DNA of 44,713 nt from a virus (Duplodnaviria > Caudoviricetes). A model generated the notes under the pieces. The model had not been told where the DNA came from, searched no databases, and saw nothing but the letters and a program-made list of their open reading frames with translations. The stretch lies in the IMG/VR virus record IMGVR_UViG_3300043414_001003, positions 1 through 44,713 of that record; one strand, 5' to 3'. Made by a program: the position numbers and the translations under genes. Below, one piece after another: positions 3,137 through 7,245 of this stretch (position 1 is its first letter; every line of letters begins with the position of its first letter).

Positions 3137-3213
3137 TGGTGCCATAGGTTGGATTTGAACCAACAACACACGAATTTTCAGTCCGCTGCTCTACCAATTG
3201 GAGCTACTATGGC
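3137..3213 (-). tRNA. tRNA-Phe(GAA)
   Basis: Cloverleaf GCCATAG...CTATGGC-A-CCA; anticodon arm GCGGA-CTGAAAA-TTCGT. Confidence 0.93.
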
Positions 3214-3222
3214 AATATAAGT

Positions 3223-3374
3223 TTTCAAGCTGCTAGCTATCTGTCGTTACACAGCCTCGCTAGATTGTCTCGCATAAGAGAGTTTATACTACCTTATAAT
3301 CGTGTGCGGTGTCACACAGCCAACCCGAACTGTGCTAGATTATTTGGGACTCAATCTTATCGTCTAGCTTGAAA
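3223..3374 (-). ncRNA. Unidentified ~150-nt structured RNA between tRNA-Ser and tRNA-Phe
   Basis: Closed by a 9-bp stem TTTCAAGCT/AGCTTGAAA; internal hairpins (GCACAGTT/GGCTGTGT, CTAGC/GCTAG, ATAAG/CTTAT); no ORF. Confidence 0.5.
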
Positions 3375-3376
3375 TC

Positions 3377-3468
3377 TGGCGGAAAGCAGAGGAGTCGAAC
3401 CCCATCCCCGTTAAGAGAACCTGGTTTTCAAGGCCAGTCGCAGGACCATCCCCGCTGCATTACTTTCC
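3377..3468 (-). tRNA. tRNA-Ser(TGA)
   Basis: GGAAAGT...GCTTTCC-G-CCA; loop CTTGAAA; long variable arm; G73. Confidence 0.9.
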
Positions 3469-3473
3469 ATAAT

Positions 3474-3552
3474 TGGTACCCCGCCTCGGAGTCGAACCGA
3501 GAGAACTCTTCCTTTTGAGAGAAGCGACTTTGCCAGATTTGTCCAGCGGGGC
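3474..3552 (-). tRNA. tRNA-Leu(CAA), short variable region
   Basis: GCCCCGC...GCGGGGT-A-CCA; arm CTTCT-CTCAAAA-GGAAG; TTCGACT T-loop. Confidence 0.9.
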
Positions 3553-3618
3553 AGGAATGGGCTTCTCACCCAATTGGCCCTAGACGGACTGTCGATAGTT
3601 CTCTTTCACACTATCCTG
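3553..3618 (-). ncRNA. Small structured, tRNA-like spacer RNA of unknown function
   Basis: CAGGA...TCCTG termini, hairpin GATAGT/ACTATC and T-arm-like TGGG-TGAGAAG-CCCA; no anticodon arm or CCA. Confidence 0.35.
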
Positions 3619-3621
3619 ATT

Positions 3622-3698
3622 TGGTGCCCTAGGCGAGATTCGAACTCGCACTTGATGGCTTCTTAGACCATTGCCTCTACCAATTGCGCTACCAGGGC
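3622..3698 (-). tRNA. tRNA-Leu(AAG), short variable region
   Basis: GCCCTGG...CTAGGGC-A-CCA; arm ATGGT-CTAAGAA-GCCAT gives anticodon AAG; Leu-like D-arm and A73. Confidence 0.88.
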
Positions 3699-3707
3699 AT
3701 ATATGTA

Positions 3708-4024
3708 TTCAACATCCCATAGCCGGGATTCTGTTCTATCCTAACATTAATCTTTGCCACAACCCGAATCAATAGCGCAAGTGTTGCCTGACTCTGTTTG
3801 TGTTGCTTGTTGTATCTGGGTAGTTTAACGATAAGTTATACAATGAATTTTGTCAGTTTATTGTTCCACTGCGTCACAACGCTATGATAGTTATACTATC
3901 GCCCTGCTTGGTACCCTACCCATTATGCGAACACTTTGGGGTCAAACGGGATAACTTATCTCCTACACGCACTTGCCACAAGTCCCGAACTTCCTCTGTT
4001 GCCAGCGTTAGGTCGGATGTTGAA
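3708..4024 (-). ncRNA. rnpB: RNase P RNA (phage-encoded, compact ~317 nt)
   Basis: P1 TTCAACATCC/GGATGTTGAA; P2 CCTAACG/TGTTAGG; minimal P3 CTG-GCAA-CAG; CR-I GAGGAAGTTCGGGAC pairs (P4) with CR-V AACAGAATCCCGGCTAT; CR-IV-like AGATTAATG. Confidence 0.88.
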
Positions 4025-4028
4025 ATCT

Positions 4029-4105
4029 TGGGGTAACCAATGGGGAACGATCCCATTCTATCGCTTTCACAGAGCGAGGTGCTAAACCTTTACACTATGG
4101 TCACC
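4029..4105 (-). tRNA. tRNA-His(GTG) with encoded G-1:C73
   Basis: GGTGACCA...TGGTTACC-CCA; arm TCGCT-CTGTGAA-AGCGA; T-loop ATCGTTC. Confidence 0.92.
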
Positions 4106-4121
4106 GTAACTAAATATCTTT

Positions 4122-4862
4122 ATGTTTAAACCTAATCACAATTCTCATTATAAAAAATATGCTAATCAATCATTAGATTGGTTGACAATAGATACTAAAG
4201 AATTATATGAAAAAAATCTAAAAGACAAATATCAACTACTTAAAGATAATAATTGGATTGATAAATCTTTTACATATAAATTTAATTCTTATGGATTTCG
4301 CTGCGATGAATTTACTGATAAACCAACCATAATGTTTCTTGGTTGCAGTAATACATGTGGAATAGGATTGCCAATTGAAAATATTTGGCCCGAACTAGTT
4401 TCTAAAAATTTAAATATGCATTGTGCTAATTTAGGACAGGGCGGTGGTTCCAATGACACAGCTTTTAGATTATGCCATGGCTGGATAGATATCATCAACC
4501 CACAAATAGTTGTTTTGTTAAATCCCCCTGGCATTAGACTAGAAATAATAGATGCTGTTGTTATGCGGCACTTAACTCCTACTTGGATTCATAATACAGT
4601 TACTCACTATCAATCTTTTTTGAAGGACTGGTCTAGGGATGATAATAACAATTATTTTAATACTTTAAAAAACAAGCTAGCAATTGAAAATTTATGCAAA
4701 GCAAGAAATGTTAAATTTGTATTTTTAGAAAGTGATGAACTCATCCAAATGCAAATGGATTTATCTAAATCGTTGGGATACTTAGATGCAGCAAGAGATT
4801 TAGGGCATCGAGGGGTATTGACTCATAAAAAATTTACTGAGTATGCTTTAACTAAAATATAA
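4122..4862 (+). CDS. SGNH/GDSL-hydrolase-like protein
   Basis: Block I FLGCSNTCG, block II NLGQGGGSND, C-terminal DLGH. Confidence 0.65.
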   Translation: MFKPNHNSHYKKYANQSLDWLTIDTKELYEKNLKDKYQLLKDNNWIDKSFTYKFNSYGFRCDEFTDKPTIMFLGCSNTCGIGLPIENIWPELVSKNLNMHCANLGQGGGSNDTAFRLCHGWIDIINPQIVVLLNPPGIRLEIIDAVVMRHLTPTWIHNTVTHYQSFLKDWSRDDNNNYFNTLKNKLAIENLCKARNVKFVFLESDELIQMQMDLSKSLGYLDAARDLGHRGVLTHKKFTEYALTKI

Positions 4863-4864
4863 AT

Positions 4865-4943
4865 TGGTCTGTGCGGTAGGATTTGAACCTACGATTTCTC
4901 ACTTCCAAGGCGAGTAGATTAAACCAGACTTTCTCACACACAG
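4865..4943 (-). tRNA. tRNA-Pro(TGG)
   Basis: CTGTGTG...CGCACAG-A-CCA; arm CTCGC-CTTGGAA-GTGAG. Confidence 0.9.
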
Positions 4944-4950
4944 ATAAACT

Positions 4951-5027
4951 TGGTGGACACATGTGGGATTCGAACCCACGACATCCTACTTGCAAGGCAG
5001 GCGTTCTTCCAACTGAACTAATGGCCC
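4951..5027 (-). tRNA. tRNA-Ala(TGC), one-base bulge in acceptor stem
   Basis: GGGCCAT/ATGTGTCC-A-CCA with G3:U70; arm CCTGC-CTTGCAA-GTAGG. Confidence 0.88.
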
Positions 5028-5035
5028 ATAAATAC

Positions 5036-5110
5036 TGGTACCCAGTGTTGGTTACGATCCAACTACAGCCGCCTTATCAAGACGGTACCTCACCATTCGG
5101 TCTACTGGGC
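5036..5110 (-). tRNA. tRNA-Ile(GAT)
   Basis: GCCCAGT...ACTGGGT-A-CCA; arm CCGTC-TTGATAA-GGCGG; T-loop ATCGTAA. Confidence 0.88.
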
Positions 5111-5137
5111 AATAAATACATAAATAAAGGTTAACAC

Positions 5138-5914
5138 ATGCATCCATATGCCAACATTGCTTATGCAACTTTAAAATTGTCATTTGACAAAGAATTATTT
5201 GTCAAAGAGTATGATGAATATATATTTCCTGCTGCTAAACCATTCATCCCGATAACAGAACAATGGCACAATATGCGAAGGCTAAATCCAAAATGGCATA
5301 TTTTATCAGACAAAAAATTCAAATATTATAACAATAAAATCATTGAAGGTAATTCATCCTTTGACGGAATTACACACCAATGGAATATGATTAATCTTAT
5401 GCAAGCTGACGGCGACTCCCCGAACGGAGGTGGAGCAAACTGGAGGTATCAAAATCTGAATAACACTAAACGCTTAAAACCACAATTTGAAAATCTTGAG
5501 ATTGTTAAGTGGATTTATTCTACCTTGCCACATACATCCATAACGGGTATACACTGCGTAAGCATAGAGCCCGGCGGGTTTGCAACTATACACCGCGATG
5601 CTCGTTGGTTAGGAGATGGCCCAAACCCTGCTAGCAAAAATGGATATTATAACAATGGATATGTAATAATAAACATTAATATCAGTGATGGGGGCGTTCC
5701 GTTATTATGGTGTTTGGATCACGAACAAACTAGCCCTAAACAAGCTAACAATGATTGTTATCTTATTAGCGATTATTTTTTACATGCCGTGCCAGAAACT
5801 TTTAGTAGACGCCGACAAATAAGAGTAAGTATGATACCTACTACTGAACTTTTTAATTTAATTGATGAATCCAGTAATGTTGTAATACCTAAAGACTATT
5901 CTTTTATAGCTTAA
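5138..5914 (+). CDS. 2OG/Fe(II) oxygenase-like (cupin/DSBH) protein
   Basis: IEPGGFATIHRD (HxD) and distal FLHAV...RRQIRV. Confidence 0.65.
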   Translation: MHPYANIAYATLKLSFDKELFVKEYDEYIFPAAKPFIPITEQWHNMRRLNPKWHILSDKKFKYYNNKIIEGNSSFDGITHQWNMINLMQADGDSPNGGGANWRYQNLNNTKRLKPQFENLEIVKWIYSTLPHTSITGIHCVSIEPGGFATIHRDARWLGDGPNPASKNGYYNNGYVIININISDGGVPLLWCLDHEQTSPKQANNDCYLISDYFLHAVPETFSRRRQIRVSMIPTTELFNLIDESSNVVIPKDYSFIA

Positions 5915-5922
5915 ATACTATT

Positions 5923-6084
5923 ATGAAAACCTACAAGAATATTACTCCTGGAGGCTTAAACTTTCACCTATCATTGATTGATGGTGTTTGTTGTATGATT
6001 GTATATGATAGATTCTTTTGTGAGTATCAAATACAATATTTTACTAATATCAACAAAGCATTACGCTTTATTAATAATCTTTGA
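5923..6084 (+). CDS. Small hypothetical protein (53 aa)
   Basis: Not in track. MKTYKNITPGGLNFHLSLIDGVCCMIVYDRFF...NNL*; TAAATA 5 nt upstream of the ATG; fills the gap to tRNA-Met exactly. Confidence 0.6.
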   Translation: MKTYKNITPGGLNFHLSLIDGVCCMIVYDRFFCEYQIQYFTNINKALRFINNL

Positions 6085-6085
6085 T

Positions 6086-6161
6086 TGGTGGTAATAGTTG
6101 GACTCGAACCAACGATAGACTGCGTATGAAGCAGTTGCATTAGCCACTATGCTATATTACC
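6086..6161 (-). tRNA. tRNA-CAT (elongator Met or Ile2)
   Basis: GGTAATA...TATTACC-A-CCA; arm ACTGC-TTCATAC-GCAGT; lacks initiator features (G1:C72 paired, no three consecutive G-C pairs). Confidence 0.88.
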
Positions 6162-6278
6162 ATATTGAAATACACTGGATGTAGCGATGATCGTTACCTC
6201 GGCTGAACCAGCCACCCTAGGAGTGCTGTAGTTCTCGTTCAGGCTCAACTACTAACGGCTTACAGTATACTTCAATAT
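6162..6278 (-). ncRNA. Stem-closed structured element A (~117 nt)
   Basis: 16-bp terminal helix ATATTGAAGTATACTG/CAGTGTATTTCAATAT; both deviations are G-U pairs only on the minus strand; GC-rich interior. Confidence 0.55.
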
Positions 6279-6283
6279 AGTCA

Positions 6284-6366
6284 CCATATAGAAACACACT
6301 AGCTTGCAAGACTACTATTAACTCCACGGGGATGCCGCTGTCAATAGGTAATGTGTTTTTATATGG
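6284..6366 (-). ncRNA. Stem-closed structured element B (~83 nt)
   Basis: Terminal helix CCATATAAAAACACATTA/TAGTGTGTTTCTATATGG with one mismatch; begins at the CCA of tRNA-Thr. Confidence 0.5.
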
Positions 6367-6437
6367 TGCTCCTTACTGGTAACGATCCAGTGTCTATACA
6401 TTACCAATGTATTATAATACCTTTATACTAAAAGAGC
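6364..6437 (-). tRNA. tRNA-Thr(GGT)
   Basis: GCTCTTT...AAGGAGC-A-CCA; arm ATACA-TTGGTAA-TGTAT; T-loop ATCGTTA. Confidence 0.88.
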
Positions 6438-6441
6438 AAAT

Positions 6442-6518
6442 TGGTGCGTCCGGAAGGATTCGAACCTCCGACTCCTAAGTTCGTAGCCTAGTACTCTATC
6501 CAACTGAGTTACGGACGC
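6442..6518 (-). tRNA. tRNA-Arg(ACG)
   Basis: GCGTCCG...CGGACGC-A-CCA; arm CTAGG-CTACGAA-CTTAG; canonical D and T arms. Confidence 0.95.
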
Positions 6519-6524
6519 ATTAAT

Positions 6525-6599
6525 TGGAGTCGCATACGGGTTTCGATCCCGTCTAGTCACCTTGAAAGGGTGATGACCTCACCAGAAGTCTAATGCGAC
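6525..6599 (-). tRNA. tRNA-Glu(TTC)
   Basis: GTCGCAT...ATGCGAC-T-CCA; arm TCACC-CTTTCAA-GGTGA. Confidence 0.9.
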
Positions 6600-6609
6600 A
6601 TAATAAAAC

Positions 6610-6668
6610 AGGATAGCATTTTTTTTTCATAAACATTGAAAGTTTTTTTGATTTGCTGTTGCTATCCT
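6610..6668 (-). other. Stem-closed spacer element with A-rich loop
   Basis: 9-bp inverted repeat AGGATAGCA/TGCTATCCT enclosing ACAGCAAAT and poly-A tracts (minus strand). Confidence 0.4.
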
Positions 6669-6673
6669 AAAAC

Positions 6674-6747
6674 TGGCAGGGGCACTAGGGATCGAACCTA
6701 GGCTCACAGATTCAAAGTCTGTTGTGCTACCATTACACAATGCCCCA
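6674..6747 (-). tRNA. tRNA-Gln(TTG)
   Basis: TGGGGCA...TGCCCCT-G-CCA (U1:U72 mismatch); arm ACAGA-CTTTGAA-TCTGT. Confidence 0.92.
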
Positions 6748-6776
6748 ATAAATTTGTAACACACTATTTCTAATGT

Positions 6777-6846
6777 GTGTATTAAAGCACTCTACATGGG
6801 TGCGTACCCACTTGTCACCTTTCGGCTAGAGAATGCTTTAATACGC
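6777..6846 (-). ncRNA. Stem-closed structured element C (~70 nt) in operon leader
   Basis: Helix GCGTATTAAAGCATTCTCTA/TAGAGTGCTTTAATACAC enclosing two mini-hairpins (GCC-GAAA-GGT, TGGGT-ACGC-ACCCA). Confidence 0.5.
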
Positions 6847-6901
6847 TTAGATTTTTCACACTACAAATAGTGATTCATCCCTAAGGCCGCCCATTCGCCC
6901 A

Positions 6902-6934
6902 TGTTTAAAGTGCAGGCTAGGATCTCGTTTCCTA
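6902..6934 (-). promoter_or_regulatory. boxB/boxA-like antitermination element
   Basis: Hairpin TAGGA-AACGAGA-TCCTA followed by TGCACTTTAAACA (rrn boxA consensus TGCTCTTTAACA). Confidence 0.4.
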
Positions 6935-6987
6935 TACACACTATCTCTCCACTACGCAACTTTATAGCTGCTTCTTAATTAACCCTT

Positions 6988-7016
6988 AGTATAACAGAGT
7001 AGCCATTTACTGTCAA
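6988..7016 (-). promoter_or_regulatory. sigma70-type promoter, proximal to the tRNA operon
   Basis: TTGACA-17 nt-TATACT. Confidence 0.85.
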
Positions 7017-7044
7017 ACTCTGTTTTGTTGTTTTTATACAACAC

Positions 7045-7084
7045 AAAAACAAAAACCCCTGAGTACTTTCGTATCCCAGGGGTT
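7045..7084 (-). terminator. Intrinsic terminator (attenuator terminator)
   Basis: AACCCCTGGG-A-TAC-GAAA-GTA-CTCAGGGGTT followed by TTTGTTTTTG. Confidence 0.85.
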
Positions 7085-7110
7085 GAATAAATTTGTTATG
7101 ATGTAACTTG

Positions 7111-7245
7111 TTATTCCGTTCCCCGGGCACCTCTTTGGTTATCATTGCCGCGAATACTTGTAGGATATGATACCGCAAAGGCCGCTAAGGTCTCTATAGA
7201 CCATAGTCCCGTATGTTTCGGCATGTAACAAGTTTTATTCATCAT
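7111..7245 (-). CDS. Putative leader peptide (44 aa) of a translation-coupled attenuator
   Basis: Not in track. MMNKTCYMPKHTGLWSIETLAAFAVSYPTSIRGNDNQRGARGTE*; lies between promoters and a terminator; its last codons pair with the terminator 5' arm. Confidence 0.7.
   Translation of the reverse strand: MMNKTCYMPKHTGLWSIETLAAFAVSYPTSIRGNDNQRGARGTE

Follow-up and report, generated by a model that had tools for sequence, protein, structure and literature searches.

RNase P RNA is regarded as a cellular housekeeping gene, and even as a marker of genome completeness (PMC8172020). Bacterial RNAs of type A (RF00010; rnpB, or M1 RNA) contain helices P1 to P6 and P15 to P17, the conserved regions CR-I, CR-IV and CR-V, a bulged U within P4, AA in J5/15 and GGU in L15. 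Those of type B (RF00011) lack P6 and have P5.1 and P15.1 instead. The archaeal type T RNA of Pyrobaculum (RF02357) comprises a catalytic domain (C-domain) and a degenerate specificity domain (S-domain), with P6 present and P18 absent (PMC5839562). The C-domain by itself can cleave pre-tRNA with or without the protein RnpA, and bacterial RnpA proteins are interchangeable (PMC4919922). In the C-domain engineered from E. coli RNA (Eco CP RPR, made with or without P18) P6 is required while P18 is not (PMC5839562). Two further groups are relevant here: the diverged RNase P RNAs of CPR organisms, which have lost helices and are missed at standard thresholds (PMC8172020), and the orthopoxvirus RNA, which is virus-encoded and has a proposed RNase P-like fold (PMC3001073).

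The window, i.e. the whole stretch of DNA that was analysed, is the complete 44,713-base virus record IMGVR_UViG_3300043414_001003. Its completeness by CheckV is ~13%, so the full phage should be roughly 340 kb. The protein genes (annotation covered 34 proteins in one scan and 25 in another) include ribonucleotide reductase, an endolysin-like hydrolase, a PAAR protein and several radical SAM genes; the closest cultured relatives of the NrdA protein are <60% identical. ARAGORN finds 12 tRNAs spanning 3137-6747, every one on the minus strand. The initial annotation had placed a phage-encoded RNase P RNA inside this array, and we confirm that 4024-3708 is a genuine RNase P RNA homolog, located between tRNA-His and tRNA-Leu. 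Its parts, in the 5′ to 3′ direction of the RNA, are as follows.

4029-4104, minus strand: tRNA-His(gtg), the upstream neighbour, with a spacer of 4 nt after its CCA
3708-4024, minus strand: the 317-nt RNase P RNA homolog, which would measure ~194 nt with the minimal hairpin of relatives as its variable stem
4014-4024, minus strand: P1 5′ strand, pairing with 3708-3719; two-sided change in 10/11 pairs
4006-4012, minus strand: P2 5′ strand, pairing with 3740-3746; 100% paired, two-sided change in 4/7 pairs
3996-4005, minus strand: P3, 3 pairs and a GNRA loop (GCAA)
3983-3995, minus strand: CR-I and P4 5′ strand, with the bulged U at 3988; gap-free against the RF00010 consensus
3978-3982, minus strand: P5 5′ strand, pairing with 3806-3810; 100% paired, two-sided change in 4/5 pairs
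3970-3976, minus strand: 5′ strand of the P6 pseudoknot, pairing with 3777-3783; two-sided change in 7/7 pairs
3961-3968, minus strand: specificity-domain stub, a 4-5 pair helix with 3819-3823, then a conserved GA
3830-3960, minus strand: variable stem (putatively P12-like) with a 10-pair closing helix, 3960-3951 / 3839-3830
3840-3950, minus strand: interior of the stem, 111 nt, a predicted multi-hairpin, replaced by other sequences in relatives
3824-3829, minus strand: GUUAAA loop strand, candidate CR-III remnant by putative homology
3803-3805, minus strand: J5/15 CAA (A248/A249 equivalents), invariant in 30/30; both A's invariant in 36/36
3758-3802, minus strand: P15 (3802-3800 / 3760-3758), P16 (3794-3789 / 3771-3766), P17 and its loop with the P6 3′ strand
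3762-3764, minus strand: GGU of the L15 internal loop, a predicted pairing partner of the tRNA 3′ RCCA
3745-3757, minus strand: J15/2 with CR-IV; P18 absent
3719-3739, minus strand: J2/4 without P19, CR-V and the P4 3′ strand (3728-3721)
3622-3698, minus strand: tRNA-Leu(aag), the downstream neighbour, after a spacer of 9 nt

Given spacers of 4 and 9 nt, co-transcription of the RNA with its flanking tRNAs is predicted to be likely. A scan for promoters and terminators was near chance (22 against 15.4 expected, and 3 against 3.3 expected). RNA-library contigs from runs X5, X7 and X10 cover the RNase P RNA or close relatives; that of X6 covers tRNAs and not the RNase P RNA, and those of X1, X15, X16 and X11 leave the interior of the window's stem uncovered, such absence of cover being no evidence. 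The library evidence as a whole is weak, because assembled contigs show neither strand nor level. The wider tRNA array is interrupted by an opposite-strand ORF at 4122-4862, one of two ORFs without known family that lie antisense within the array (the other is at 5138-5914, plus strand). Relatives exist that have no ORF at 4122-4862, and the array therefore gains and loses genes. We also note a long-arm tRNA at 3381-3468 (minus strand), Ser-like by eye, that was missed by ARAGORN and gives only a weak tRNA-Sec match. Further non-coding stretches in the tRNA region at 3214-3375, 6170-6350 and 6750-7240 are partly conserved in relatives; no credible Rfam match to them was found, and it is possible that they are additional small RNAs.

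On the window, all Rfam RNase P models stay below their gathering scores. The top match on a 346-base stretch is to RNaseP_arch (18.4 bits, E 0.0019) and covers the 3′ part alone, and searching the window contig with RF00010, RF00011 and RF02357 gave no match. The gathering score of RF00010 is 100 bits, against which short relatives score ≤42.7 bits; the best Rfam match of family RNAs is often RNaseP_arch. Since Rfam gives no match at gathering scores, relatives were collected by motif scans, giving 7, 51, 31 and 42 loci (overlapping sets) from IMG/VR, 59 from metagenomes and 9 from GTDB. After duplicates, full-size type A RNAs (L003, L004 and L006), L007 and loci in which either P4 strand was missing had been left out, 90 distinct RNAs fit the family pattern, membership being based on an nhmmer profile and pair counts.

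A profile made from 20 relatives, with the window left out, matches the window at E 2.9e-61. A structure of 62 pairs was written from the window sequence and then applied to an alignment of 30 of the 90 RNAs, hand-picked for subfamily and length. Of the resulting 1860 cells (30 RNAs x 62 pairs) 98.5% are paired, with two-sided change in 41 of the 62 pairs, and the tables for individual pairs contain several pair types in P1, P2, P5, P6 and P16. None of 500 shuffles reaches any of five measures and slid controls pair only 32-44%, although these controls overstate the significance because the aligned RNAs are related and the structure was taken from one of them. The covariance-model check that had been suggested for the locus therefore has a divided outcome: the gathering score is not reached, while the profile of the relatives and the covariation support the identity. 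Minimum free energy folding of the whole RNA (z -1.0, not significant) is uninformative, as expected for a doubly pseudoknotted RNA. The fold itself was discarded as wrong on the pseudoknots.

The catalytic domain is whole, comprising P1 to P6 and P15 to P17. It contains the P1-P2-P3-P4 core with the P4 pseudoknot that is a feature of all RNase P RNA types. P1 (11 pairs), P2 (7 pairs), a minimal P3 (3 pairs and the GCAA loop) and both P4 strands are present as originally described; the helix inventory given there was incomplete, overlooking P5, the 7-pair P6, P15 to P17 with the GGU, and the absence of P18. The covariant changes claimed for P4 are borne out. Both strands align without gaps to the RF00010 consensus, from which they differ by four compensated pairs, and P4 is completely paired in 88 of the 90 distinct RNAs. 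The pair preceding the bulged U is U.G in 63 RNAs and C-G in 27. The bulge must then be the second U of GUUC (3988), since in those 27 of 90 RNAs the first U becomes C opposite the same G. The count of the bulged U in relatives is not independent, because the search pattern itself required that U. U3988 corresponds to the universal uridine that binds metal; in T. maritima this uridine binds an active-site metal (PMC3488217).

Comparison of 36 diverse short RNAs (mean identity 47%), most of which came from a pattern containing neither GGT nor GCAA, reveals which positions are invariant. These are CR-I, the G-AG of the stub, GCAA in J5/15, GGT in L15, CR-IV and CR-V. The L15 GGT is found in 36/36 of these RNAs and in 86/90 of the family set. 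CR-IV lies at 3745-3753 in J15/2 (J18/2), where AG..AT is invariant among the 36. RNase P makes six contacts with its substrate, four of them in the C-domain (PMC13254310, section 7). Those with clear counterparts here are the L15 GGU, the bulged U and the J5/15 A, and the invariant positions of the short RNAs match the contacts described there save for the two in the S-domain. The CCA-binding motif that is near-invariant in the phage family is lacking in about two-thirds of CPR RNAs (PMC8172020).

Most of the S-domain is gone. P8, P9, P13, P14, P18 and P19 are absent, together with the double T-loop that reads the tRNA elbow, so the view that the interior does not resemble a type A specificity domain and that P19 is missing was right. 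Between P6 and the 3′ strand of P5 there remain only a helix of 4-5 pairs, an internal loop formed by GA and GUUAAA, and one stem. The interdigitated T-loops of CR-II and CR-III were not found; a CR-II-like motif occurs in none of the 90 RNAs, and GAG and GUUAAA are the only remnants. In minimal relatives one helix and a tetraloop hairpin are all that lies in this interval, with none of P8, P9, P12 to P14 or P18. Comparison with L004 and L006 makes the names P12-like and CR-III remnant possible ones. A reading of the GA/GUUAAA loop as a k-turn was rejected by eye, since the variable strand does not contain the required GA.

The RNA described here thus differs from type A in the helices and the CR-II/CR-III double T-loop that it has lost, in its four compensated P4 changes and 7-pair P6, in being encoded by a phage, and in giving no match to RF00010. 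It is not of type B, as P6 is present and that model has no match. It shares with type T the catalytic domain, the degenerate S-domain, the presence of P6 and the absence of P18, but it is viral, does not match RF02357 and comes from a group in which Pop5 was found in none of five genomes; the resemblance is likely to be convergent. In its helix inventory it is the same as Eco CP RPR, from which it differs in being natural, under selection, and furnished with an S-domain stub and an exchangeable stem. The CPR RNAs are cellular and retain more of the S-domain (PMC8172020). In contrast to the orthopoxvirus RNA, which is inactive and loosely similar (PMC3001073), it has all the signature motifs of the catalytic domain with covariation. 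The catalytic half of the phage RNA is like that of type A and its reduction as a whole like that of archaeal type T, and it fails both models.

We think it probable, from the sequence comparisons, that this RNA shares a transcript with its neighbours, associates with host RnpA and removes the 5′ leaders of phage pre-tRNAs, holding these by contacts to the CCA, the cleavage site and the leader. It would be a phage RNase P RNA pared down to the catalytic domain and acting on CCA-ended pre-tRNAs, which would be held by GGU-RCCA pairing, J5/15 and the RnpA-bound leader, and not by the elbow. The long P6 may compensate for the lost tertiary contacts. A cut at +1 of tRNA-Leu would free the 3′ end of the RNA itself from the presumed common transcript, and the result would be extra processing capacity during infection. 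The inventory fits an active C-domain because P6 is kept and P18 lost, as the E. coli C-domain tolerates (PMC5839562). CCA is encoded in 229 of the 234 tRNAs beside subfamily RNAs, matching the conserved GGU, and this counts in favour of a role in tRNA processing. Against it, removal of the S-domain costs the E. coli RNA 120- to 500-fold and the B. subtilis RNA ~25,000-fold (PMC5839562), and the orthopoxvirus RNA, conserved and expressed, showed no activity (PMC3001073).

That viral precedent would also suit a non-catalytic decoy, binding host RnpA or tRNA 3′ ends and diverting the processing of host tRNA, for which the surviving surfaces for RnpA and CCA and the missing S-domain would be appropriate. 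Yet the active-site geometry of P4 has been kept through compensated changes, and such a decoy would starve the phage's own tRNAs of processing too. We consider it rather unlikely.

The statement that no rnpA is visible in the window is upheld by a negative PF00825 search of the contig. RnpA was likewise found in none of 38 other virus records carrying such RNAs, 12 of which are at least 90% complete; the same search detected 10 of 14 controls. As no RnpA was found in the window or in these records, host RnpA is predicted to be the likely partner. An active RNA might instead use an unrecognised phage protein, or no protein at all. The P4 variant and the lack of P18 do resemble archaeal RNAs, as does the frequent best match to RNaseP_arch, and the window is only ~13% of its genome. 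However, the L15 GGU and the layout of P15 to P17 and P6 are those of type A, and no Pop5 or PIN_5 (HARP-type PIN) protein was found in five near-complete genomes (0/5), nor RnpA in the 12 records that are at least 90% complete. On balance this is unlikely, and we prefer a reading in which the host supplies the protein.

The initial annotation suggested that the ribozyme might be tuned to the phage's non-canonical T-loops. In its strong form this would mean that the phage tRNAs have T-loops that the host enzyme cannot read. Non-canonical T-loops, of A54 type, do occur in 4 of the 11 CCA-ended tRNAs of the window, and the S-domain that reads the T-loop has been lost. All four nevertheless retain C56-G57, and T-loops departing from TTCRA are equally frequent beside subfamily RNAs (25/229, 11%) and beside full-size type A phage RNAs (3/26, 12%). 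The suggestion failed on these counts, and tuning of this kind is very improbable.

The variable stem is the part in which family members differ most freely. In the smallest relatives it is a 2-pair tetraloop hairpin and the RNA is ~195 nt long, while 57 subfamily RNAs hold 45 different stem contents. The 28 inserts of at least 55 nt form 24 groups with no relation to one another; 27 of the 28 keep a closing helix of 5 pairs or more, compared with 18% of shuffles. This retention, with the covariation and the invariant single-stranded residues across 90 RNAs, bears on the idea of a host rnpB that was captured and survives as a decaying relic, which the low Rfam scores and large insertions might suggest. 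The pair counts largely refute such decay, and we find it scarcely credible. We infer that the specificity stem is vestigial, has no constraint on its sequence and accommodates unrelated passengers, of which the 111 nt in the window are one.

No homolog of this 111-nt interior was found among the fetched loci (best E 0.10) or in two exact-motif scans of IMG/VR. Its fold is merely suggestive (z -1.76), and a search of it for a T arm or an acceptor stem found neither. A 26-nt likeness to a tRNA 3′ end (E 1.3) was rejected as not significant. Contig G024 is 99.8-100% identical to the window over 3959-31289, changes to a short hairpin exactly at the start of the stem, and is ~90% identical beyond. 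Judged from this sequence comparison, the interior appears to have been recently exchanged or to be strain-specific; the break could reflect recombination, or the chimeric assembly of one contig or the other. Contigs from runs X15 and X16 have an identical 10-pair closing helix enclosing 136 other bases, that of X1 has 101 other bases in the stem, and that of X11 a minimal hairpin. An independent contig in run X10 joins the interior to the 3′ half (3794-3929, with 4 differences). This, together with the perfect closing helix, argues that the window's form of the stem is real.

Some passengers are tRNA- or tmRNA-like. A T arm is present in 7 of the 28 long inserts and an acceptor stem ending in ACCA in 5, and RNase P has many non-tRNA substrates (PMC4919922), so the main targets of an active, elbow-blind enzyme might be CCA-ended or hairpin RNAs other than tRNA, such as nested tmRNA-like passengers or host RNAs. 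The neighbours of most family members are ordinary tRNA genes, however, and the insert of the window itself has neither feature; we regard such targets as quite unlikely to be the main ones, and retain cleavage of the phage pre-tRNAs as the probable function.

One passenger is a 131-nt tmRNA-like RNA, found in L011, L023, L052, L141 and L208, with a G3.U70 acceptor and a T arm. Its Rfam tmRNA matches have E 0.009 and 0.0024. In three of four IMG/VR matches it is nested in the variable stem, and in the fourth it is free-standing; in L141 it lies at a second position of the RNase P RNA. In three copies a short reading frame whose stop is conserved was seen by eye. SmpB was found in none of five genomes tested, one of them a carrier of this RNA. 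A search of IMG/VR for a second insert family found none. In another locus the variable stem encloses a tRNA gene (L067, 908-987; Rfam 42.8 bits).

The P18 position is a second insertion site in 16 of the 90 RNAs (L062, L081, L113, L122, L129, L140 and L001 among them). Several of these inserts share a hairpin with a UGAAA-like loop, which might be ancestral. An entire mini RNase P gene is found within a longer, split RNase P gene in L046 (290-1415) and in L042/L047. In L046 the inner gene is flanked by a 9-base direct repeat. A 199-aa ORF, GIY-YIG-like by eye, occupies the P18 position of the outer gene; the L046 ORF has no PHROGs match.

More tentatively, a separate structural class of RNase P may have arisen in large phages, an elbow-blind natural ribozyme of ~195 nt that borrows host RnpA. 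Its vestigial stem would be an exchangeable cassette for passengers, some of them substrates of the RNA itself that would be self-excised to leave a working two-piece RNA; the 111 nt of the window would be a further undescribed small RNA. We offer this as a speculation that is less likely than not to be correct in full.

The mini RNase P RNA family is essentially one of viruses. In GTDB, a scan for P4 strands lying close together, with a pattern that sees only the P4 variant of this family, gave 9 matches in 185,579 genomes. By eye, four are Micrarchaeota with a different interior, two are of phage type in tRNA-bearing MAG contigs, and three are chance. The four Micrarchaeota MAGs (L149, L151, L153 and L156) contain very short RNase P-like RNAs with P4 strands 156-174 bases apart. 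Among five carriers tested, four have a T4-type major capsid. BLAST of the window RNA, L006 and L033 against 50,697 phage records gave no match. Many tRNA-rich phages lack a mini RNase P gene, so that it is not generally needed, which weighs against the proposed role.

We found no published report of a phage RNase P RNA in the literature covered, which comprised main texts, mainly from non-subscription journals. Phage RNase P is not mentioned in the main text of PMC7162821, PMC8346664 or PMC13282480, and the supplements of huge-phage papers could list such RNAs; nor does it appear in the available parts of PMC11143913, PMC10879173, PMC8172020 and bioRxiv 10.64898/2026.09.22.753630. The RNA is genuine and, as far as this coverage goes, represents a novel structural form of an already known ribozyme, found where none was expected, and its function is strongly implied. 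The family escapes standard Rfam thresholds. A widespread phage form that has dropped the S-domain and kept all of the catalytic and CCA-binding residues would rank among the smallest natural ribozymes of bacterial RNase P type. With it, the ability of an RNase P made of the catalytic domain alone to function in vivo can be tested directly. An origin of RNase P in which the C-domain came first has been proposed, and such a test bears on it. The phage form would also mean that the maturation of tRNA, besides its supply, is under the control of large phages.

Other phage RNase P RNAs were seen beside this family. L003, L004 and L006 are full-size type A RNAs in phage tRNA arrays, scoring 165-191 bits (above the Rfam threshold) and having the same P4 variant. 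L020-L022, L027, L030, L034, L041, L043, L045, L058 and L007 make up a second phage family, whose S-domain is different and partly reduced; the three scored members reach 75-94 bits with RF00010. Two unannotated GenBank phage genomes of 595-642 kb (LR756502.1 and LR756511.1; L201 and L202) contain mini RNAs of the family type. Microbacterium phage Zooman (OK040793.1, ~89,342-89,553; L200, 1400-1611) has, between two tRNA-Arg genes, an RNase P-like RNA of ~210 nt that is not annotated, differs in its S-domain stub and matches RF00010 at 53 bits (E 7e-16); Big4 (ON637770.1) also matched as a carrier, by a BLAST row only. Zooman is in culture, so that infection experiments are possible now.
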